Shown one piece after another: positions 14,796-47,227 of a stretch of DNA of 64,000 nucleotides (position 1 is the first letter of the stretch; each line of letters opens with the position of its first letter). The stretch lies in the NCBI GenBank assembly GCA_963665645.2, contig CAXXQN010000010.1, forward strand, positions 42,683-106,682, in the 5' to 3' direction. Position numbers and translations under genes: made by a program. The notes under the pieces were generated by a model. The model worked only from the letters and a program-made list of their open reading frames with translations. It was not told the origin of the DNA and did no database searches. Source of the DNA: Anaerovoracaceae bacterium (GTDB lineage: Bacteria > Bacillota > Clostridia > Peptostreptococcales > Anaerovoracaceae).

Positions 14796-15627
14796 CCTTG
14801 CGCCTCCTGATTTTATCTAGGAATGGAACCTTAACCTTTTCCGTCTGGATCTGACTTAAATAGATATTCAGCAAGGTTTTTTCAACAGTTTTGATATCAA
14901 GAAATCTGGAAAGCTTCCCATCTACTGCAATAGAAATAATCCCAGTCTCTTCCGATACGATAAGCGCTATCGCGTCGGAATTTTCCGTAATTCCAATTCC
15001 TGCTCTGTGTCTGGTTCCCAATTCCTTGCTCAGAGTCTTGCTCTGCGTCAAAGGAAGCACGCACCCCGCAGCAAAAACCCGATCCCCTCTAACGATAATA
15101 GCTCCGTCGTGCAACGGTGCCCCCACGTAAAAGATATTTCCCAGCAATTCTGTTGAAATTTCTGCGTTAATTTTTGTTCCCGTCTCTGCGATATCATTCA
15201 AAGTCGTCTCCCGTTCCATAATGATCAATGCACCGACTTTGTTGGATGAGAAAAAATCTACTGCTTTAATAATTGCTGCAGTGATCGTTTTTACTCTTTC
15301 TTTATCCATTTGTGCAAACGGAGGTGTAATAAATTTGCTTCGACCAACATATTCCAAAGCACGCCTGAGTTCTGGCTGGAAAACAATAACAAGTGCAATA
15401 ACGCCTAATGATATTGTATTACGAAGAATCCAATTCAGTGTATAGAGATTAAATTTATCCGATAAAATGGTAATCACAACCAAAATTAGCAGCCCTTTCA
15501 CAAGCTGCAACGCTCTGGTTTCCCTAATGAATCCTAAGACTTTATAGATCACAAACGCAACGATGCACACATCAATGACATCTGTGATTCCAACGCCGGA
15601 AATAATATTATCGAATATTTCTGACAT
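14782..15627 (-). CDS. cdaA: diadenylate cyclase
   Basis: Three N-terminal TM segments and a DAC domain (HDGAIIV, GTRHRAG). ATG at 15627 has a GGGGGAGAAG RBS, and the TTG at 15645 is less likely. Confidence 0.9.
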   Translation of the reverse strand: MSEIFDNIISGVGITDVIDVCIVAFVIYKVLGFIRETRALQLVKGLLILVVITILSDKFNLYTLNWILRNTISLGVIALVIVFQPELRRALEYVGRSKFITPPFAQMDKERVKTITAAIIKAVDFFSSNKVGALIIMERETTLNDIAETGTKINAEISTELLGNIFYVGAPLHDGAIIVRGDRVFAAGCVLPLTQSKTLSKELGTRHRAGIGITENSDAIALIVSEETGIISIAVDGKLSRFLDIKTVEKTLLNIYLSQIQTEKVKVPFLDKIRRRKDAEQ

Positions 15628-15727
15628 AGATCTCTTCTCCCCCAAGTTTCTGCTGAACGCCCGGCTTCAACCGGATTAGAATTCTTTCAATTCGCAAAGC
15701 AAAATTGAATGCGACAGTCTTATAATT

Positions 15728-15756
15728 ATTGTACCGAATAAAGTGCTACATTTCAA
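15728..15756 (-). promoter_or_regulatory. candidate sigma-A promoter of the cdaA operon
   Basis: On the minus strand, TTGAAA-17 nt-TACAAT, about 80 nt upstream of the cdaA start. Confidence 0.45.
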
Positions 15757-15800
15757 TAGGTTTTAAGGAGAAATTCAAACAACAAGAATGTAAAAAAAGT

Positions 15801-15927
15801 GGAAATGACGGAATCGAGGCTTCCTATTTCCAAATGTCGCCGCAAGGGCGACGACGGTCAAGGAGCTTTCTTTGATACTCCGTCAATATCGCTGAAAGCA
15901 ATATTTCCTACTGAATAAAAAAAGTGG
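15801..15927 (-). repeat. hairpin-rich intergenic repeat, copy A1 (boundaries approximate)
   Basis: Three hairpins: 15801-15831, 15836-15852, 15885-15905. About 90% identical to 20804-20927. On the minus strand, hairpin 1 is followed by U7. Confidence 0.75.
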
Positions 15928-16025
15928 CTGACGCCACGCTTGTGCGACGCGGAATTTATCACTACGTCGTACTTTTTTGTTGCGTCATGGTTTTTTATCC
16001 TTTAAAATTTACTTGGTGATGTTTT

Positions 16026-17144
16026 GTGAGTTCGAAGTTTACCATCAAGCAAATATTTCAAGATCACTGGCCCGCATTCCTCTCTTCCAATCCAAGCATT
16101 CGTCCTATCGTCAAGGATGAAGTTGAAAAAATGCTTAATTGCGGTGATTTGAAAAAGGGCTATGGTCTCTACTACTGTCATCACTGCAATCGATTCCATT
16201 ATGTGCCTTTTCGCTGCAAATCCCGCTTCTGCAATACCTGCGGCACCGCCTATCAGGCAGATCGTGCCGATTCCATATCTGCAAAGCTGATTAACTGCCG
16301 CCACAGGCATATTGTTTTTACGATCCCTCAAGAGCTTCGTGAGCTTTTTAGAAAAAACCGCGCCCTTTTGGATCTTCTTTTTAAGGCTGCTGCTCAAACG
16401 ATTACCAACTGGTTTTACAATCAGAATCATAAGGAATCCTTTACTCCCGGTATAGTCTGTTCCCTTCATACCTTCGGTCGCGATCTCAAGTGGAATCCAC
16501 ATATCCATATGATTGTATCCGAAGGTGCCTGCGGCCTGCTTACTCCTTGGAAAGCATTCAACTTTTTCCCTTATGTGATGCTGCGGAAAAAATGGCAGAC
16601 TACCTTGCTTTATCACCTTGAGCGACACTTCGATAATGATTCGTTCAAATTCCTGAAAAACAAAATGTATTCCAACAACAAGGACGGTTTCTATGTCCAC
16701 GCTCCCAAATCTGATTTTAACTCTCCCAAAACCGTCGCTAATTACATCACCAGATATATCGGAAGGCCTGCCTTGGCTCAATCACGTATTACGAATTACG
16801 ATGGGCAAAACATCTCTTTTTGGTACAACCGCCATGAAGATGAACAACGTCAGGACGAAACCATCCCTGCTTTTGAATTCATCGAAAGGCTTATCATTCA
16901 CATTCATGAAAAGTATTTCAACACGTTGCGCTATTACGGTCTCTATGCGAAAAAGCATAAGTTTGCCGATAGGCTTGTTTTCCTTCTTTCAAGACATTCT
17001 GCGAAAGCCCGCCTCTTGTGCAGAAATTGGGCTTTCCGAATCGAACTATCCTTTGGCTATGATCCCACTAGATGCTCTTGTGGAAACTATATGGAATTTC
17101 TCGGCGTTTTCCGGCCTGGTGATGTTGCCTTTATGCCCCCTTGA
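16026..17144 (+). CDS. IS91-family Y2 HUH transposase, copy 1
   Basis: GTG start 5 nt after GGTGAT. Cys-rich Zn region (CHHC...CKSRFCNTC), HUH-like NPHIHMIV, two-Tyr motif ANYITRYIGRP. Confidence 0.85.
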   Translation: MSSKFTIKQIFQDHWPAFLSSNPSIRPIVKDEVEKMLNCGDLKKGYGLYYCHHCNRFHYVPFRCKSRFCNTCGTAYQADRADSISAKLINCRHRHIVFTIPQELRELFRKNRALLDLLFKAAAQTITNWFYNQNHKESFTPGIVCSLHTFGRDLKWNPHIHMIVSEGACGLLTPWKAFNFFPYVMLRKKWQTTLLYHLERHFDNDSFKFLKNKMYSNNKDGFYVHAPKSDFNSPKTVANYITRYIGRPALAQSRITNYDGQNISFWYNRHEDEQRQDETIPAFEFIERLIIHIHEKYFNTLRYYGLYAKKHKFADRLVFLLSRHSAKARLLCRNWAFRIELSFGYDPTRCSCGNYMEFLGVFRPGDVAFMPP

Positions 17145-17177
17145 TGTGTATAATGGTGCCATTGGAGGTACTGCAAA

Positions 17178-17450
17178 ATGACTAAGCATATTTATATGAA
17201 AAAATCTGAATACAATCGAATCACCGCCGAGAAACTACGCACTAAATATATGAAGAATCCGCCTGAAGGATATACAAAATCAGAAATCAAATCGATGTCG
17301 GATGATTCCATCCTTGACATGGACTATTTTCTTCACGAAGAGTCCTACGACTTTTACGATGATGATTTCCCCGCTGAAGAGCCTGATGAAATCATCCATC
17401 TTATCGATGATTTACCTAAAGATCCTGTGGATGAGGATATTCCTTGGTAA
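17178..17450 (+). CDS. 90-aa acidic hypothetical protein carried by the IS, copy 1
   Basis: ATG lies 9 nt after GGAGG. Asp/Glu-rich C-terminal half. Followed by a GAGGCC-n6-GGCCTC hairpin plus T-rich run. Confidence 0.55.
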   Translation: MTKHIYMKKSEYNRITAEKLRTKYMKNPPEGYTKSEIKSMSDDSILDMDYFLHEESYDFYDDDFPAEEPDEIIHLIDDLPKDPVDEDIPW

Positions 17451-17651
17451 TCAGGTTCTGTTTTCTTATGCGCTTCTTTCCCTTGAGGCCTTTTGGGGCC
17501 TCTATTTTTATTCCTGGTTTTGAACGATATTTCCTACTGAATAAAAAAAGTGGCTGACGCCACGCTTGTGCGACGCGGAATTTATCACTACGTCGTACTT
17601 TTTTGTTGCGTCATGGTTTTTTATCCTTTAAAATTTACTTGGTGATGTTTT

Positions 17652-18770
17652 GTGAGTTCGAAGTTTACCATCAAGCAAATATTTCAAGATCACTGGCCCG
17701 CATTCCTCTCTTCCAATCCAAGCATTCGTCCTATCGTCAAGGATGAAGTTGAAAAAATGCTTAATTGCGGTGATTTGAAAAAGGGCTATGGTCTCTACTA
17801 CTGTCATCACTGCAATCGATTCCATTATGTGCCTTTTCGCTGCAAATCCCGCTTCTGCAATACCTGCGGCACCGCCTATCAGGCAGATCGTGCCGATTCC
17901 ATATCTGCAAAGCTGATTAACTGCCGCCACAGGCATATTGTTTTTACGATCCCTCAAGAGCTTCGTGAGCTTTTTAGAAAAAACCGCGCCCTTTTGGATC
18001 TTCTTTTTAAGGCTGCTGCTCAAACGATTACCAACTGGTTTTACAATCAGAATCATAAGGAATCCTTTACTCCCGGTATAGTCTGTTCCCTTCATACCTT
18101 CGGTCGCGATCTCAAGTGGAATCCACATATCCATATGATTGTATCCGAAGGTGCCTGCGGCCTGCTTACTCCTTGGAAAGCATTCAACTTTTTCCCTTAT
18201 GTGATGCTGCGGAAAAAATGGCAGACTACCTTGCTTTATCACCTTGAGCGACACTTCGATAATGATTCGTTCAAATTCCTGAAAAACAAAATGTATTCCA
18301 ACAACAAGGACGGTTTCTATGTCCACGCTCCCAAATCTGATTTTAACTCTCCCAAAACCGTCGCTAATTACATCACCAGATATATCGGAAGGCCTGCCTT
18401 GGCTCAATCACGTATTACGAATTACGATGGGCAAAACATCTCTTTTTGGTACAACCGCCATGAAGATGAACAACGTCAGGACGAAACCATCCCTGCTTTT
18501 GAATTCATCGAAAGGCTTATCATTCACATTCATGAAAAGTATTTCAACACGTTGCGCTATTACGGTCTCTATGCGAAAAAGCATAAGTTTGCCGATAGGC
18601 TTGTTTTCCTTCTTTCAAGACATTCTGCGAAAGCCCGCCTCTTGTGCAGAAATTGGGCTTTCCGAATCGAACTATCCTTTGGCTATGATCCCACTAGATG
18701 CTCTTGTGGAAACTATATGGAATTTCTCGGCGTTTTCCGGCCTGGTGATGTTGCCTTTATGCCCCCTTGA
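17652..18770 (+). CDS. IS91-family Y2 HUH transposase, copy 2
   Basis: Translation identical to copy 1. Confidence 0.85.
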   Translation: MSSKFTIKQIFQDHWPAFLSSNPSIRPIVKDEVEKMLNCGDLKKGYGLYYCHHCNRFHYVPFRCKSRFCNTCGTAYQADRADSISAKLINCRHRHIVFTIPQELRELFRKNRALLDLLFKAAAQTITNWFYNQNHKESFTPGIVCSLHTFGRDLKWNPHIHMIVSEGACGLLTPWKAFNFFPYVMLRKKWQTTLLYHLERHFDNDSFKFLKNKMYSNNKDGFYVHAPKSDFNSPKTVANYITRYIGRPALAQSRITNYDGQNISFWYNRHEDEQRQDETIPAFEFIERLIIHIHEKYFNTLRYYGLYAKKHKFADRLVFLLSRHSAKARLLCRNWAFRIELSFGYDPTRCSCGNYMEFLGVFRPGDVAFMPP

Positions 18771-18803
18771 TGTGTATAATGGTGCCATTGGAGGTACTGC
18801 AAA

Positions 18804-19076
18804 ATGACTAAGCATATTTATATGAAAAAATCTGAATACAATCGAATCACCGCCGAGAAACTACGCACTAAATATATGAAGAATCCGCCTGAAGGATATA
18901 CAAAATCAGAAATCAAATCGATGTCGGATGATTCCATCCTTGACATGGACTATTTTCTTCACGAAGAGTCCTACGACTTTTACGATGATGATTTCCCCGC
19001 TGAAGAGCCTGATGAAATCATCCATCTTATCGATGATTTACCTAAAGATCCTGTGGATGAGGATATTCCTTGGTAA
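18804..19076 (+). CDS. 90-aa acidic hypothetical protein, copy 2
   Basis: Translation identical to copy 1. Confidence 0.55.
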   Translation: MTKHIYMKKSEYNRITAEKLRTKYMKNPPEGYTKSEIKSMSDDSILDMDYFLHEESYDFYDDDFPAEEPDEIIHLIDDLPKDPVDEDIPW

Positions 19077-19277
19077 TCAGGTTCTGTTTTCTTATGCGCT
19101 TCTTTCCCTTGAGGCCTTTTGGGGCCTCTATTTTTATTCCTGGTTTTGAACGATATTTCCTACTGAATAAAAAAAGTGGCTGACGCCACGCTTGTGCGAC
19201 GCGGAATTTATCACTACGTCGTACTTTTTTGTTGCGTCATGGTTTTTTATCCTTTAAAATTTACTTGGTGATGTTTT

Positions 19278-20396
19278 GTGAGTTCGAAGTTTACCATCAA
19301 GCAAATATTTCAAGATCACTGGCCCGCATTCCTCTCTTCCAATCCAAGCATTCGTCCTATCGTCAAGGATGAAGTTGAAAAAATGCTTAATTGCGGTGAT
19401 TTGAAAAAGGGCTATGGTCTCTACTACTGTCATCACTGCAATCGATTCCATTATGTGCCTTTTCGCTGCAAATCCCGCTTCTGCAATACCTGCGGCACCG
19501 CCTATCAGGCAGATCGTGCCGATTCCATATCTGCAAAGCTGATTAACTGCCGCCACAGGCATATTGTTTTTACGATCCCTCAAGAGCTTCGTGAGCTTTT
19601 TAGAAAAAACCGCGCCCTTTTGGATCTTCTTTTTAAGGCTGCTGCTCAAACGATTACCAACTGGTTTTACAATCAGAATCATAAGGAATCCTTTACTCCC
19701 GGTATAGTCTGTTCCCTTCATACCTTCGGTCGCGATCTCAAGTGGAATCCACATATCCATATGATTGTATCCGAAGGTGCCTGCGGCCTGCTTACTCCTT
19801 GGAAAGCATTCAACTTTTTCCCTTATGTGATGCTGCGGAAAAAATGGCAGACTACCTTGCTTTATCACCTTGAGCGACACTTCGGTAATGATTCGTTCAA
19901 ATTCCTGAAAAACAAAATGTATTCCAACAACAAGGACGGTTTCTATGTCCACGCTCCCAAATCTGATTTTAACTCTCCCAAAACCGTCGCTAATTACATC
20001 ACCAGATATATCGGAAGGCCTGCCTTGGCTCAATCACGTATTACGAATTACGATGGGCAAAACATCTCTTTTTGGTACAACCGCCATGAAGATGAACAAC
20101 GTCAGGACGAAACCATCCCTGCTTTTGAATTCATCGAAAGGCTTATCATTCACATTCATGAAAAGTATTTCAACACGTTGCGCTATTACGGTCTCTATGC
20201 GAAAAAGCATAAGTTTGCCGATAGGCTTGTTTTCCTTCTTTCAAGACATTCTGCGAAAGCCCGCCTCTTGTGCAGAAATTGGGCTTTCCGAATCGAACTA
20301 TCCTTTGGCTATGATCCCACTAGATGCTCTTGTGGAAACTATATGGAATTTCTCGGCGTTTTCCGGCCTGGTGATGTTGCCTTTATGCCCCCTTGA
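19278..20396 (+). CDS. IS91-family Y2 HUH transposase, copy 3 (one Asp to Gly change)
   Basis: HFDNDSF becomes HFGNDSF through the G at 19885. Confidence 0.85.
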   Translation: MSSKFTIKQIFQDHWPAFLSSNPSIRPIVKDEVEKMLNCGDLKKGYGLYYCHHCNRFHYVPFRCKSRFCNTCGTAYQADRADSISAKLINCRHRHIVFTIPQELRELFRKNRALLDLLFKAAAQTITNWFYNQNHKESFTPGIVCSLHTFGRDLKWNPHIHMIVSEGACGLLTPWKAFNFFPYVMLRKKWQTTLLYHLERHFGNDSFKFLKNKMYSNNKDGFYVHAPKSDFNSPKTVANYITRYIGRPALAQSRITNYDGQNISFWYNRHEDEQRQDETIPAFEFIERLIIHIHEKYFNTLRYYGLYAKKHKFADRLVFLLSRHSAKARLLCRNWAFRIELSFGYDPTRCSCGNYMEFLGVFRPGDVAFMPP

Positions 20397-20429
20397 TGTG
20401 TATAATGGTGCCATTGGAGGTACTGCAAA

Positions 20430-20702
20430 ATGACTAAGCATATTTATATGAAAAAATCTGAATACAATCGAATCACCGCCGAGAAACTACGCACTAAATA
20501 TATGAAGAATCCGCCTGAAGGATATACAAAATCAGAAATCAAATCGATGTCGGATGATTCCATCCTTGACATGGACTATTTTCTTCACGAAGAGTCCTAC
20601 GACTTTTACGATGATGATTTCCCCGCTGAAGAGCCTGATGAAATCATCCATCTTATCGATGATTTACCTAAAGATCCTGTGGATGAGGATATTCCTTGGT
20701 AA
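20430..20702 (+). CDS. 90-aa acidic hypothetical protein, copy 3
   Basis: Translation identical to copy 1. Confidence 0.55.
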   Translation: MTKHIYMKKSEYNRITAEKLRTKYMKNPPEGYTKSEIKSMSDDSILDMDYFLHEESYDFYDDDFPAEEPDEIIHLIDDLPKDPVDEDIPW

Positions 20703-20803
20703 TCAGGTTCTGTTTTCTTATGCGCTTCTTTCCCTTGAGGCCTTTTGGGGCCTCTATTTTTATTCCTGGTTTTGAACGATATTTCCTACTGAATAAAAAA
20801 AGT

Positions 20804-20927
20804 GGAAATGACGGAATCGAAGCTTCCTATTTCCACATGTCGCCGCAAGGGCGACAACGACCAAGGAGCTTTCTTTGATACTCCGTCAATATCGCTGAGA
20901 GCGAAATTTCCTACGTAATAAAAAGAG
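20804..20927 (-). repeat. hairpin-rich intergenic repeat, copy A2
   Basis: Same three-hairpin layout as A1. Abuts the hpf terminator on one side and the last IS junction on the other. Confidence 0.75.
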
Positions 20928-20951
20928 AGACGGTTTTTTTAAGCCGTCTCT
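20920..20951 (-). terminator. intrinsic terminator of hpf
   Basis: On the minus strand, AGAGACGG-n9-CCGTCTCT followed by CTTTTT. Confidence 0.7.
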
Positions 20952-20968
20952 AATAATCTATCTATCGA

Positions 20969-21499
20969 TTAATATTGTGTCTCCAATATACCATAATCAT
21001 TATTTTTTCTTTTATAAACGACGTTTACCGCATCGCTTTCCATGTTGAGAAACACAAAGAAACTATGTTCCAAAAGTTCCATTTGCATAATTGCCTCGTC
21101 GACAGACATCGGCATCAATTCAAACTTCTTTCTTCTCACAACGCTCATTTCTTCTAATTCCTCACCAGCAACCTCAGGAATGTTTTTAAATAACAATTCC
21201 TTATGGTCTTTATGTTTTCGTTGGAGCTTGGTCTTAAATCTCGACATTTGAGAAGATAATTTTTCAACAACCCTGTCCACACCATTGTAAGCATCATTTG
21301 TAGTTTCTTCAGCCCTAAAGATAGTCCCGTTCGCATTGATCGTTGCTTCTATCTTTTGCCTGCCCTTCTCAGTGGATAAGGTGATGTTGGCCACGATATC
21401 ATTAGAGAAATACTTTCCCAGTCGATCCAATTTGGATTCGATGGTTTCTTTCAGATGGTCACTGGCATTCATGTTTTTGCTTGTAATGATAACTTTCAT
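20969..21499 (-). CDS. hpf: ribosome hibernation promoting factor (long form)
   Basis: 176 aa. N-terminal RaiA/HPF fold (MKVIITSKNM...LKETIESKL) and a C-terminal dimerisation domain. Confidence 0.9.
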   Translation of the reverse strand: MKVIITSKNMNASDHLKETIESKLDRLGKYFSNDIVANITLSTEKGRQKIEATINANGTIFRAEETTNDAYNGVDRVVEKLSSQMSRFKTKLQRKHKDHKELLFKNIPEVAGEELEEMSVVRRKKFELMPMSVDEAIMQMELLEHSFFVFLNMESDAVNVVYKRKNNDYGILETQY

Positions 21500-21946: not shown

Positions 21947-22120
21947 ACTAGAGCCGCCTAGCTGACCTGATCTTTGCCCCCACACCTGCCTTTTGATTTT
22001 TATCAAAGGACTTACATCTAAGCTACGCCATGATCACTGCCGCCTTGCGGTCCAGCTTACGTGGGTCCTTTTGCCCGTAACTGGCATGGACTTTCAATCA
22101 CAGACCTAAGCAGCTCTAGT
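21947..22120 (-). ncRNA. structured ncRNA candidate, probably raiA-motif RNA
   Basis: A 15-bp closing helix joins 22120-22106 to 21961-21947. It has two G-U pairs on the minus strand that would be C-A mismatches on the plus strand. GC-rich interior inside an AT-rich spacer. Lies between comFC and hpf. A possible TTGTGT-18-TATATA promoter is at 22160-22131. Confidence 0.5.
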
Positions 22121-34797: not shown

Positions 34798-34812
34798 ATT
34801 CATTCTCCCAAA

Positions 34813-34969
34813 AAATGTGGCGACAACGGCTGTGCCTCCTGCTTGCTTCGCTCGCTGCTGTCCGTTTTGCCATGCCAAGCAAGCTTGGGGCAAAAAGGCA
34901 ACGGTCATGGGGCTTTCTTTGATACTCCGTCAATATCGCCAAGAGCGATATTTTCCTACGTAATAAATA
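34813..34969 (-). repeat. mosaic copy A3 of the intergenic repeat (A-type 3' module plus ~90-nt B module)
   Basis: 34906-34969 matches A1/A2. 34817-34905 is an extra module with the hairpin TTTTGCC..CCAAGC-AA-GCTTGG-GGCAAAA (34865-34895). Confidence 0.7.
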
Positions 34970-34971
34970 AC

Positions 34972-34998
34972 GGGCTGTAACCATAATAGTTACAGCCC
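34972..34998 (-). terminator. hairpin after the substrate-binding protein gene (likely attenuating terminator or stabiliser)
   Basis: GGGCTGTAAC-n7-GTTACAGCCC, followed on the minus strand by GTTATTTATT. Confidence 0.5.
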
Positions 34999-35008
34999 CC
35001 TCATACTA

Positions 35009-35989
35009 TTATCGTTCTACATAGGACGGTTCATCAAGATAAGTATCAATATTTGCTTGTGTAACTTCGATCGAGCCTGTATCGATATATTTCTCTATTT
35101 CTTTGCCGTCGCAAAGATCATTCATCATATCGATCACGCCTTTTCCCCAGGAGTTTTGTCTTTGAGAAACAATTCCGGTAATATAACCATCTCTGAGTCC
35201 CTGAATATTATCCGGCATATCGTCAAAAGTTATAATCATATGTTCCTCACTATTTTGCCAGCCTTTTGCTTTCCAAATGGAAATCATTGCAGGGCCTGCG
35301 GTTGCATCAATACCGATCATCGCTTTAAACTCCTGGTTGGCCTGAATCATATTTTCCGCAGCAGTTACCGCTTTTTGGGGATCTCCTTCGCTGGACTGAG
35401 TATCCGAAATTTCGATATTTGGTGCTTTCTCGGATAAATATTCTTTGATACCACGAATTCTTTCATTTAAGCTCAATTGTGTCGGCAGTCCAGTTAGAAT
35501 CAAAATCTTGCCCTCGCCGTCAAGCTTCTCCGTGATGACGGCTCCCATATGGCGTCCCGCATTGTAGTTGTTCGTGCCAATGAAAGATGCTTTTTGGCTG
35601 TCCGGAGCGTCTGATTCAAAGCAGATTACTTGAATCCCTGCATCCACTGCTTTGTCGATGGTTGGAACAAGGGCAGAAGTATCGGTCGGTCCGATTGCGA
35701 TGCCATCGACCTTCATTGCAATCAAATTCTCCATAATCTCGATTTGCTGCTGAGCATCCGATTTATCCGGAGCTTTGGTGATGACTTTGATGCCCAGCTC
35801 TTTTCCATACTCTTCTGCATCAACACCGATTGGTTCAAAGAATGGATGAACGATGGGGAAAACGACAGCGAAGGTTCTTTCTTTTGTTTCCTGATCCGGC
35901 GTGTCACTGGATGACGGTTCGGCTCCACATGCCACAGCCATAAAAACCATAGCAAGAACAAGCAATACTGCCAAAACTTTATTTCTCAT
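35009..35989 (-). CDS. sugar ABC transporter substrate-binding lipoprotein (RbsB type)
   Basis: Lipobox MAVACG and a periplasmic-binding-protein type I fold. Confidence 0.85.
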   Translation of the reverse strand: MRNKVLAVLLVLAMVFMAVACGAEPSSSDTPDQETKERTFAVVFPIVHPFFEPIGVDAEEYGKELGIKVITKAPDKSDAQQQIEIMENLIAMKVDGIAIGPTDTSALVPTIDKAVDAGIQVICFESDAPDSQKASFIGTNNYNAGRHMGAVITEKLDGEGKILILTGLPTQLSLNERIRGIKEYLSEKAPNIEISDTQSSEGDPQKAVTAAENMIQANQEFKAMIGIDATAGPAMISIWKAKGWQNSEEHMIITFDDMPDNIQGLRDGYITGIVSQRQNSWGKGVIDMMNDLCDGKEIEKYIDTGSIEVTQANIDTYLDEPSYVER

Positions 35990-46841: not shown

Positions 46842-46944
46842 ACAAAAAACAGATTGAGCGGAAGATTCCCATCCAGCTAACACCGATGGAATTTCCGTAT
46901 TGCTCCTGTCGACATTTGCTCAACAAATGAAGCTGGGTGCGTAA

Positions 46945-47227
46945 AACCGTTGATTAAGAAGAGTAAGCATAGCCCTTCATTTCACAGAGAACCGCTGATG
47001 GTGGGATAGCGGTAAATGAGACTACGCCGAATGGACTTATGAGGGCAGGACGAAATTAGCTTGCGCAGTAAATTAACAAGCAAGAGTAGTGCCTGACGGG
47101 ATCTCTACCCGTTATCAAGGGAGCATGTATGAAGTACATGGAAGGAGTGGGTGCTTGCGCCAATCAGGGTGGTACCGCAGAAGTTTAGCTTTTGTCCCAG
47201 AGAAATCTGGAACAAAAGCTTTTTTTA
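46945..47227 (+). promoter_or_regulatory. T-box riboswitch, tryptophan specifier (UGG at 47032-47034)
   Basis: K-turn TGATTAAGAAGAGTA, the AGAGA and GGTGGGA distal motifs, GAA-UGG-A in the specifier position, T-box AATCAGGGTGGTACCGCAG (47162-47180), and terminator AGCTTTTGT.CCAG-n6-CTGG.ACAAAAGCT plus T7. Confidence 0.8.

Follow-up and report, generated by a model that had tools for sequence, protein, structure and literature searches.

A head-to-tail triplication of an IS91-family insertion sequence beside an intrinsic terminator, and terminator-like hairpins as a possible target of its clade

Between the genes for a ribosome hibernation factor (hpf, also raiA) and a diadenylate cyclase (cdaA) of an Anaerovoracaceae bacterium lies a chain of mobile elements: three complete 1626-bp copies of an IS91-family insertion sequence (IS), the right end of each joined to the left end of the next without a spacer, bracketed by two miniature elements, R1 and R2. 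All five share one orientation and run, on the plus strand, in the order R1-IS-IS-IS-R2, followed directly by the terminator of hpf (Table 1). The chain sits in a 64,000-nucleotide stretch of contig CAXXQN010000010.1 (assembly GCA_963665645.2, positions 42,683 to 106,682), hereafter the window, and we are highly confident that this structural description of block and chain is sound. We further propose, at odds slightly better than even (a probability of roughly 0.55), that a Clostridia clade of IS91 elements has swapped the tetranucleotide target of its family for the U-tract and hairpin of intrinsic terminators, probably recognised in single-stranded form; that the left terminus of the element (terIS) mimics this target; that insertions therefore stack upon themselves; and that the triplication is a fresh example of such stacking.

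Identity at a period of 1626 bp spans positions 15901-20805, that is, 3 x 1626 bp plus 27 bp, and breaks at A versus G on one side (15900 and 17526) and at C versus A on the other (19180 and 20806). The units differ at a single position, where copies 1 and 2 have A (16633, 18259) and copy 3 has G (19885); the change turns Asp203 of the transposase into Gly in copy 3. An earlier sequence-only reading of the window had reported this period, these boundaries, the block size and the single A/G difference, along with two open reading frames (ORFs) per unit (372 aa at 16026/17652/19278 and 90 aa at 17178/18804/20430), and we reproduce all of these measurements. Its central claim, a head-to-tail triplication of an IS91-family rolling-circle IS, is upheld, and the data support its view that the copies are very recent. 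An exact triplication of 4.9 kb cannot have originated by chance. Note that the unit does not stand out by composition (42% G+C, window 41%) and that, while a repeat finder reports the array, Tandem Repeats Finder (TRF) does not, because its longest period is 500.

The 372-aa protein is, judging by its domains and motifs, an IS91-family transposase of the Y2/HUH type. It matches Pfam Y2_Tnp (PF04986, 1.1e-35) and Zn_Tnp_IS91 (PF14319, 5.9e-24) as well as the NCBIfam equivalog 'IS91 family transposase' (NF033538) at 300.3 bits against a cutoff of 125, the kind of match on which the sequence-only reading had staked its family call. The zinc region, HUH motif and two tyrosines claimed there are present and do not vary among relatives: in an alignment of the window protein with 26 relatives, H159-I-H161, Y240 and Y244 are invariant, and so are the cysteines of the zinc site (C54, C64, C72, C350, C352). 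Membership of ISCR is ruled out by the score against the ISCR model (NF052416, 60.5 bits, cutoff 925), by length (372 aa versus about 500 aa) and by a clear ter-like left end. At position 203, copies 1 and 2 carry Asp, whereas Gly is the residue of 20 of 27 relatives, the closest ones without exception.

Public relatives are at most 88% identical at the protein level, and the best match among GTDB representatives is an 85% identical transposase from an Anaerovoracaceae metagenome-assembled genome. A transposase profile scan of one genome per species returned 80 loci, all from Clostridia and relatives; with 10 metagenome contigs these make up a set of 90 loci, mostly from short-read assemblies, to which we compare the window (L-numbers below denote individual loci, within this set or added later). 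Most homologous transposases lie on contigs of 1.3-1.8 kb, about the length of one unit. Contigs of about 1.6 kb are the signature of a collapsed repeat, and the clade is routinely collapsed or broken in short-read assemblies, so that arrays would be invisible there.

Downstream of the transposase gene (tnpA), each unit encodes a 90-aa protein, ORF90, with a basic N-terminus and a strongly acidic C-terminus. It matches no Pfam or NCBIfam family, but tblastn recovers it downstream of the transposase at 29 of the 90 loci, down to a transposase identity of 47%, with a conserved core at about residues 18-64. ORF90 is probably an accessory or regulatory protein of the clade. A protein identical to ORF90 is found on seven contigs of a protein collection, the longest of 1.4 Mb, and further copies of the IS appear to exist in the source genome. 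A 259-aa ORF also runs antisense within each transposase gene (16002-16781, 17628-18407 and 19254-20033, minus strand); it is probably spurious, a by-product of codon usage in the sense frame.

Where does one copy end and the next begin? We set the ends by comparing one IS in different flanks (L001, L002, L004 and L006 versus L003), together with a more distant IS (L009 and L010). Homology with relatives starts at (A)TAAAAAAAGTGGCT, which is window position 15915/15916, and stops at ...GATA(A/T)TTCCTACTGAA(TAAA), giving an IS that extends from TAAAAAAAGTGGCTGACGCCAC to ...GATATTTCCTACTGAA, exactly 1626 bp. From 15916 the 1626-bp unit tiles the block exactly, three units with zero remainder; hence the period is the whole element and the copies touch without a spacer. 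The two ends are dissimilar (left TAAAAAAAGTGGCTGACGCCAC, right GATATTTCCTACTGAA) and lack terminal inverted repeats, and no target-site duplication is present in the flanks of one IS (L001, L003) or of a related IS (L009).

With the ends in place, two features to which the sequence-only reading had given a role lose it. The 27-mer ATATTTCCTACTGAATAAAAAAAGTGG occurs exactly four times (15901, 17527, 19153 and 20779), on the plus strand only, and had been regarded as a repeat at the junctions and, in one alternative, as a substrate for crossing-over. It consists instead of 15 nt of IS right terminus followed by 12 nt of IS left terminus, and there is a fourth occurrence because the flanking miniatures have the same termini as the IS; the ends set from relatives thus exclude it as a spacer, a target duplication or a crossover substrate. 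Similarly, GAAC is indeed found at 17522-17525 and at the equivalent positions of the other units, yet it is not the flanking target that had been supposed: it is internal, 16-19 nt from the right end, and close relatives have other sequence in its place (GATGCGATATTTCC for L009 and L012, CCATCGATATTTCC for L014).

What, then, lies beyond the right end? In every copy of the IS that we compared in different flanks, the sequence 3' of the right end is an A-run plus a GC-rich hairpin. The hairpins differ between copies of one IS (L001 versus L003) and so belong to the flank rather than to the IS. Across the clade, a right end of the form ...TTCCTAnnnnn almost always directly adjoins TAAAAAA plus a GC-rich hairpin, the complement of a rho-independent terminator, usually that of a convergent gene. 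We folded the 55 nt after TTCCTA at those 51 loci of the profile scan that combine a recognisable right end with sufficient flank. Median minimum free energy (MFE) was -14.4 kcal/mol, compared to -5.3 for random windows from the same loci and -4.6 for windows that start with an A-run; an MFE of -10 or below was reached by 80% of right flanks but only 15-18% of controls (Mann-Whitney p ~1e-18). Note that three of the weakest cases are mis-picked motifs within the small ORF downstream of tnpA. A convergent ORF ends no more than 120 nt away at 46% of loci and no more than 200 nt away at 68%, versus 10-14% for random positions. The right-flank hairpins are therefore mostly intrinsic terminators of convergent genes, with the element adjoining the T-tail of the terminator directly and in a single fixed orientation.

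The tetranucleotide flank of the GAAC/CAAG type (5'-GTTC/CTTG) that would be expected of the IS91 family is absent from most relatives. We therefore file the element as an IS91 member with a variant target, the tetranucleotide being a trait of the characterised members and not of the protein family. Plasmid relatives fall below 40% identity; the two inspected, L099 from Bacillus thuringiensis and L100 from Enterococcus faecium (37-39%), lack the TTCCTA right end.

The window itself offers a before-and-after comparison. Anoxybacterium hadale, from a genus to which the Anaerovoracaceae host is related, shares the gene order recD2-comF-hpf-cdaA-cdaR-glmM and a 90% identical hpf protein, and its orthologous site is empty, reading terminator-TTTTTGTCGCATCTTG. 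Removing 15791-20918 from the window leaves terminator-TTTTTA joined to CATTCTTG; the insertion point of the 5128-bp chain therefore coincides, give or take about 3 nt, with the end of the terminator T-tail. This comparison identifies the hpf terminator, which lies 19 nt past the stop codon of hpf at 20969, as the site originally targeted by the chain as a whole.

A hairpin of the same kind is found at the opposite end of the element. The left end consists of TAAAAAAA followed by a short hairpin, and across the clade the hairpin stem covaries. In 52 of 69 left ends, TAAAAAA(A) is followed at once by a perfect hairpin of 5-6 bp, and the left end of these loci starts 82-138 nt upstream of tnpA (198 nt in L072). 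About ten compensated stem types occur, among them GTGGC/GCCAC, GTGAC/GTCAC, GCGTC/GACGC, GCGGC/GCCGC, GTGCC/GGCAC and GTGTC/GACAC as well as the longer GTGCGA/TCGCAC, GCGGAA/TTCCGC and GTGGAC/GTCCAC; the palindrome of the window copies is GTGGC-TGAC-GCCAC, 8 nt from the left end. A scan with a terminator consensus scores the left end of each unit as a minus-strand terminator (GTGGCGTCAGCCAC TTTTTTTATT) and finds, in addition, a plus-strand terminator-like hairpin after ORF90 in every unit. A GC-rich stem-loop at the left end, subterminal and beside the ter cleavage site, is a known feature of IS91, IS801 and IS1294 (PMC3189936, PMC13181058). In IS801 and IS1294, moreover, the tetranucleotide at the ter cleavage site equals the target tetranucleotide, GTTC in both places, so the resemblance between the target signal flanking oriIS and the ter site has a parallel there (PMC13181058).

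Taken together, these patterns suggest a model in which the Y2/HUH transposase would recognise an A-run-plus-hairpin signal and cleave on its 5' side, in single-stranded DNA, at the ori junction, at ter and at the target alike. Such an insertion would spare the target and add a second copy of the signal at the left end of the element. Further insertions at the same place would then be favoured, and elements would stack head to tail. HUH enzymes act on single-stranded DNA, and for IS91 the functional intermediate is a circle of single-stranded DNA in which ori is joined to ter (PMC13181058); as to a rolling-circle intermediate in this clade, the ori-ter junctions seen are those in assembled DNA.

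Could the association with terminators arise with no target specificity at all, from broad insertion followed by survival only beyond terminators, the array being a coincidence at a permissive spot? The intergenic space downstream of convergent genes is known to offer mobile elements a safe haven. Terminator-like sequences are, besides, generally enriched around IS elements (PMC13548323). If survival were the only factor, however, we would expect neither the constant register of right end, A-run and hairpin without a spacer, nor the fixed orientation, nor the same motif in the elements' own left ends with compensatory changes in its stem. Selection alone leaves these features unexplained, and we consider such an explanation extremely improbable, although selection for harmless sites probably reinforces the terminator-adjacent pattern that targeting would create.

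If elements do stack by insertion, the chains need not consist of identical copies, and chains of unlike members are indeed observed. We scanned metagenomes for a right end joined to a left end and recovered six loci; in viral contigs, the junction pattern had no match. In L092, two different elements form a head-to-tail dimer: they are 80.4% identical over 1019 nt, and the right end of one meets the TAAAAAAAGTGGCTGACGCCAC of the other. At this level of identity the two must be independent insertions at the same signal and not the outcome of duplication, slippage or a multimeric circle. In L091, a 1622-bp IS is preceded by a foreign right-end-like sequence and followed by the beginning of a second copy of itself. 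Elsewhere, an IS is followed by a miniature and then a terminator (L014, L074, L101), a right-end-like sequence adjoins the left end of an IS (L037), or the right-flank hairpins are similar to the left end of an IS (L021, L029). L092 and L091, along with the R1-IS and IS-R2 junctions of the window, show that chains are built by insertion. The newcomer would use either the persisting terminator or the terminator-like left end of the resident, two routes that sequence alone cannot separate.

The window miniatures deserve a closer look in this context. The sequence-only reading overlooked a direct repeat of about 125-134 nt on either side of the block (15791-15924 and 20794-20927, 92% identical), which overlaps the 27-mer: the 27-mer closes the left copy, and its last 12 nt open the right copy. 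This repeat corresponds to R1 and R2, which start with TAAAAAAAGTGG plus a hairpin (GTGGAAAT...ATTTCCAC) and finish with (A/T)ATTTCCTAC(TG/GT)AA; R1 shares 12 nt on the left and 15 nt on the right with the IS termini. A third copy, R3, lies about 14 kb from the array, just upstream of the start region of the next gene, and adjoins the terminator hairpin of a minus-strand gene (-10.1 kcal/mol, z -6.3). The family is thus short and non-coding, with three copies at two loci in 64 kb and right ends that adjoin an A-run plus hairpin. By their termini, dispersal and placement, R1-R3 look like non-autonomous derivatives comparable to miniature inverted-repeat transposable elements. An identity as riboswitch or small RNA was considered and ruled out: Rfam has no match in 15500-21100 even at E <= 1, and R behaves as a dispersed mobile repeat. 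Miniatures of the same architecture accompany relatives in other genomes and metagenomes (L014, L074, L094, L101). A second widespread miniature family, found in other metagenomes (right flank of L003; L093, 3863-4000; L101, 7370-7560), starts with AAAAAAGTGGCnnCGCCAC, continues with ...CTAGGGAACCnTATGGTTCCC... and sets a TTCCT right end against a terminator; its interior is unrelated to that of R1-R3.

Having established that insertion can build mixed chains, we can ask how the three near-identical copies of the window came about. One possibility, raised by the sequence-only reading, is that rolling-circle replication failed to terminate or that a multimeric circle integrated in a single step. 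Near-identical units, strictly head to tail, are what this would yield, IS91 is known to form circles with an oriIS-terIS junction whose single-stranded form is functional (PMC13181058), and the Helitron Helraiser also gives head-to-tail circle junctions (PMC4778049). But read-through past ter from a chromosomal donor enters the left flank, not the element again. Furthermore, Gly203 in copy 3 is the consensus residue and Asp203 in copies 1 and 2 is derived, implying at least two successive events rather than one. Neither version explains the R1-IS and IS-R2 junctions or the 80%-identical dimer. The idea is also unneeded and, in our estimation, improbable.

In a second scenario, targeted insertion happened only once or twice, and homologous unequal crossing-over or replication slippage between neighbouring copies then turned a dimer into a trimer. 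The allele pattern is as unit duplication predicts, with copies 1 and 2 identical and sharing the derived Asp203 while copy 3 carries Gly, and direct repeats of 1.6 kb are good RecA substrates. Tandem-repeat duplications associated with IS91 have also been proposed elsewhere (PMC5737581). The scenario nevertheless needs an initial head-to-tail dimer, which recombination cannot make from a single copy. The 27-mer is no independent flanking repeat that could seed one, and the mixed chains (L092, R1-IS, IS-R2) show that transposition alone builds such junctions. We therefore think it rather unlikely as the principal route, although unequal crossing-over may have contributed to the array, and the last step could have been either local re-insertion or unequal exchange between copies. 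Repeated targeted insertion, that is, targeting combined with stacking, is in our judgement the probable cause.

Finally, there might be fewer than three units, the count being an artefact of assembly. Identical tandem units of 1.6 kb are error-prone in assembly, and nearly all relatives sit on collapsed contigs of about 1.6 kb. Against this, the one inter-copy difference restores the common residue, which makes sequencing error very unlikely and implies that at least two distinct copies are real; independent metagenome contigs, moreover, have the same head-to-tail junctions. A protein identical to hpf is also recorded on a contig of 146 kb, and if that contig belongs to this assembly, long reads were probably used. 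An artefact of this kind strikes us as very improbable.

Several observations nonetheless weigh against targeting and stacking as proposed here. The order IS-miniature-terminator occurs in only 2 of the 44 genome loci with enough right flank, and by motif count alone a second downstream right end (2/44 versus about 0.7 expected) is not clearly above background; the case for chains rests on their detailed structure and not on this count. Two transposase genes are found in none of the 90 loci, a result that, given mostly short-read assemblies, is uninformative on arrays. Copies that differ at one base fit a single insertion plus recombinational amplification equally well, and the copy number of the array is taken from the assembly only. 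Some relatives (L013, L040, L049, L062) do not show the A-run-plus-hairpin pattern. We infer hairpin recognition by the transposase from sequence patterns, the exact cut within the A-run can be placed only to a few nucleotides, and adjacency to terminators could partly reflect the survival of harmless insertions.

Table 1. Coordinates of the chain, its components and the adjoining genes, as positions of the window.
Feature	Position	Strand	Description
IS copy 1	15916-17541	+	Complete 1626-bp IS91-family element; ends set from relatives in different flanks
IS copy 1, left end	15916-15937		TAAAAAAAGTGGCTGACGCCAC, terIS-like
IS copy 1, right end	17522-17541		GAACGATATTTCCTACTGAA, oriIS-like
IS copy 1, tnpA	16026-17144		GTG start; Asp203
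ORF90 (one per unit)	17178-17450, 18804-19076, 20430-20702	+	Downstream of tnpA in each unit; conserved, probably accessory
IS copy 1, internal hairpin	17485-17512	+	Terminator-like; terminator scan of both strands
IS copy 2	17542-19167	+	Identical to copy 1; directly adjoins copy 1 (left) and copy 3 (right)
IS copy 3	19168-20793	+	Differs from the others only by G at 19885 (Gly203)
R1	15791-15915	+	125-nt putative miniature non-autonomous element; right end adjoins left end of IS copy 1
R1 ends			Left TAAAAAAAGTGGAAAT...ATTTCCAA (A-run plus hairpin); right GCAATATTTCCTACTGAA, last 15 nt equal to IS right end
R2	20794-20918	+	125-nt putative miniature; left TAAAAAAAGTGGAAAT...ATTTCCAC meets right end of IS copy 3
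R2 right end			AAATTTCCTACGTAA, adjoins hpf terminator
R3	34810-34963 (about)	+	Third, more diverged copy; BLAST 93-95% over 3' half
R3 right end			GCGATATTTTCCTACGTAA, adjoins terminator hairpin 34972-34998 of minus-strand gene 35009-35989
hpf intrinsic terminator	20919-20950	-	Plus strand TAAAAAG + AGAGACGG...CCGTCTCT; fold -8.9 kcal/mol, z -5.0
hpf/raiA	20969-21499	-	Ribosome hibernation factor; ORF, Pfam domains on homologues; convergent with transposase genes
cdaA	14782-15645	-	Diadenylate cyclase; next gene downstream on minus strand, separated from hpf by the chain

Two structured RNAs are also recognisable in the window. Upstream of hpf/raiA, as expected, a raiA RNA motif (Rfam RF03072, 134 bits) occupies 21953-22114 on the minus strand, and a T-box leader (Rfam RF00230, 100 bits) is found at 46941-47202 on the plus strand.

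How does the element compare to known systems? Like IS91, IS801 and IS1294, it combines an N-terminal zinc domain, an HUH motif and two tyrosines with distinct ori-like and ter-like ends and has neither inverted repeats nor a target duplication. Three features set it apart from the characterised members. First, their target is a tetranucleotide (5'-CTTG, GTTC or GTCC), whereas here it would be TAAAAAA plus a hairpin. Second, the clade has a small acidic ORF of about 90 aa downstream of tnpA, unlike the Orf121 of IS91, which lies upstream. Third, it stacks. Head-to-tail arrays, chains with miniatures and terminator targeting are undescribed for the IS91 family in the searchable literature, a scope that leaves out ISfinder and TnCentral.

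Partial likenesses are found both within and outside the family. IS801 miniatures, which arise by one-ended transposition and are mobilised in trans, are likewise short and non-autonomous and retain the right (ori) end (PMC3189936). They are, however, contiguous right-end fragments of the parent, whereas R1-R3 share only about 15-20 nt on the right and 12 nt on the left and have an interior and a subterminal palindrome (AATATCGC-loop-GCGATATT) of their own. ISCR elements, for example the tet(X3) units of ISCR2, are IS91-like rolling-circle elements that also occur in tandem structures (PMC12734723), but their repeats are multi-kilobase units with cargo genes and belong to another transposase clade, while here the bare IS is repeated.

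With regard to target choice, the closest parallel comes from class C (IIC) group II introns, which insert in one orientation right after rho-independent terminators and recognise the stem-loop (PMC3522654). Those retroelements work through a ribozyme and reverse transcriptase and share no homology with the IS in protein or mechanism; the likeness concerns the target only. IS1272/TnSha1, of the IS1182 family, also targets hairpins, many of them confirmed terminators, with little sequence specificity and no duplication (PMC4923244). Yet IS1272 inserts into the stem, deletes part of it and does so in both orientations, whereas here the hairpin is left intact, insertion is beside it and orientation is fixed. 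The IS1182 family consists of DDE-type elements. Helraiser, a Helitron, resembles the window element in being a rolling-circle HUH system with a termination hairpin near one end and precise head-to-tail junctions (PMC4778049). Its junctions, however, are seen in circular intermediates and not in chromosomal arrays built by targeting. Helraiser is eukaryotic, has a Rep-helicase protein and uses an AT dinucleotide as its target.

In existing descriptions, IS91 elements pick targets of four bases, and failed termination leads them to mobilise adjacent genes. If the model outlined here is true, a single specificity of the Y2 transposase would cover the ori flank, ter and the target. This would explain the oriented chains past gene 3' ends, a low-cost niche shared with group IIC introns, and the frequent collapse of the clade to contigs of about 1.6 kb in metagenome assemblies. 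The defined ends and the junction motif allow the clade and its miniatures to be annotated. In the source organism itself, the 5.1-kb chain between hpf and the cdaA-cdaR-glmM operon may affect local read-through and expression.

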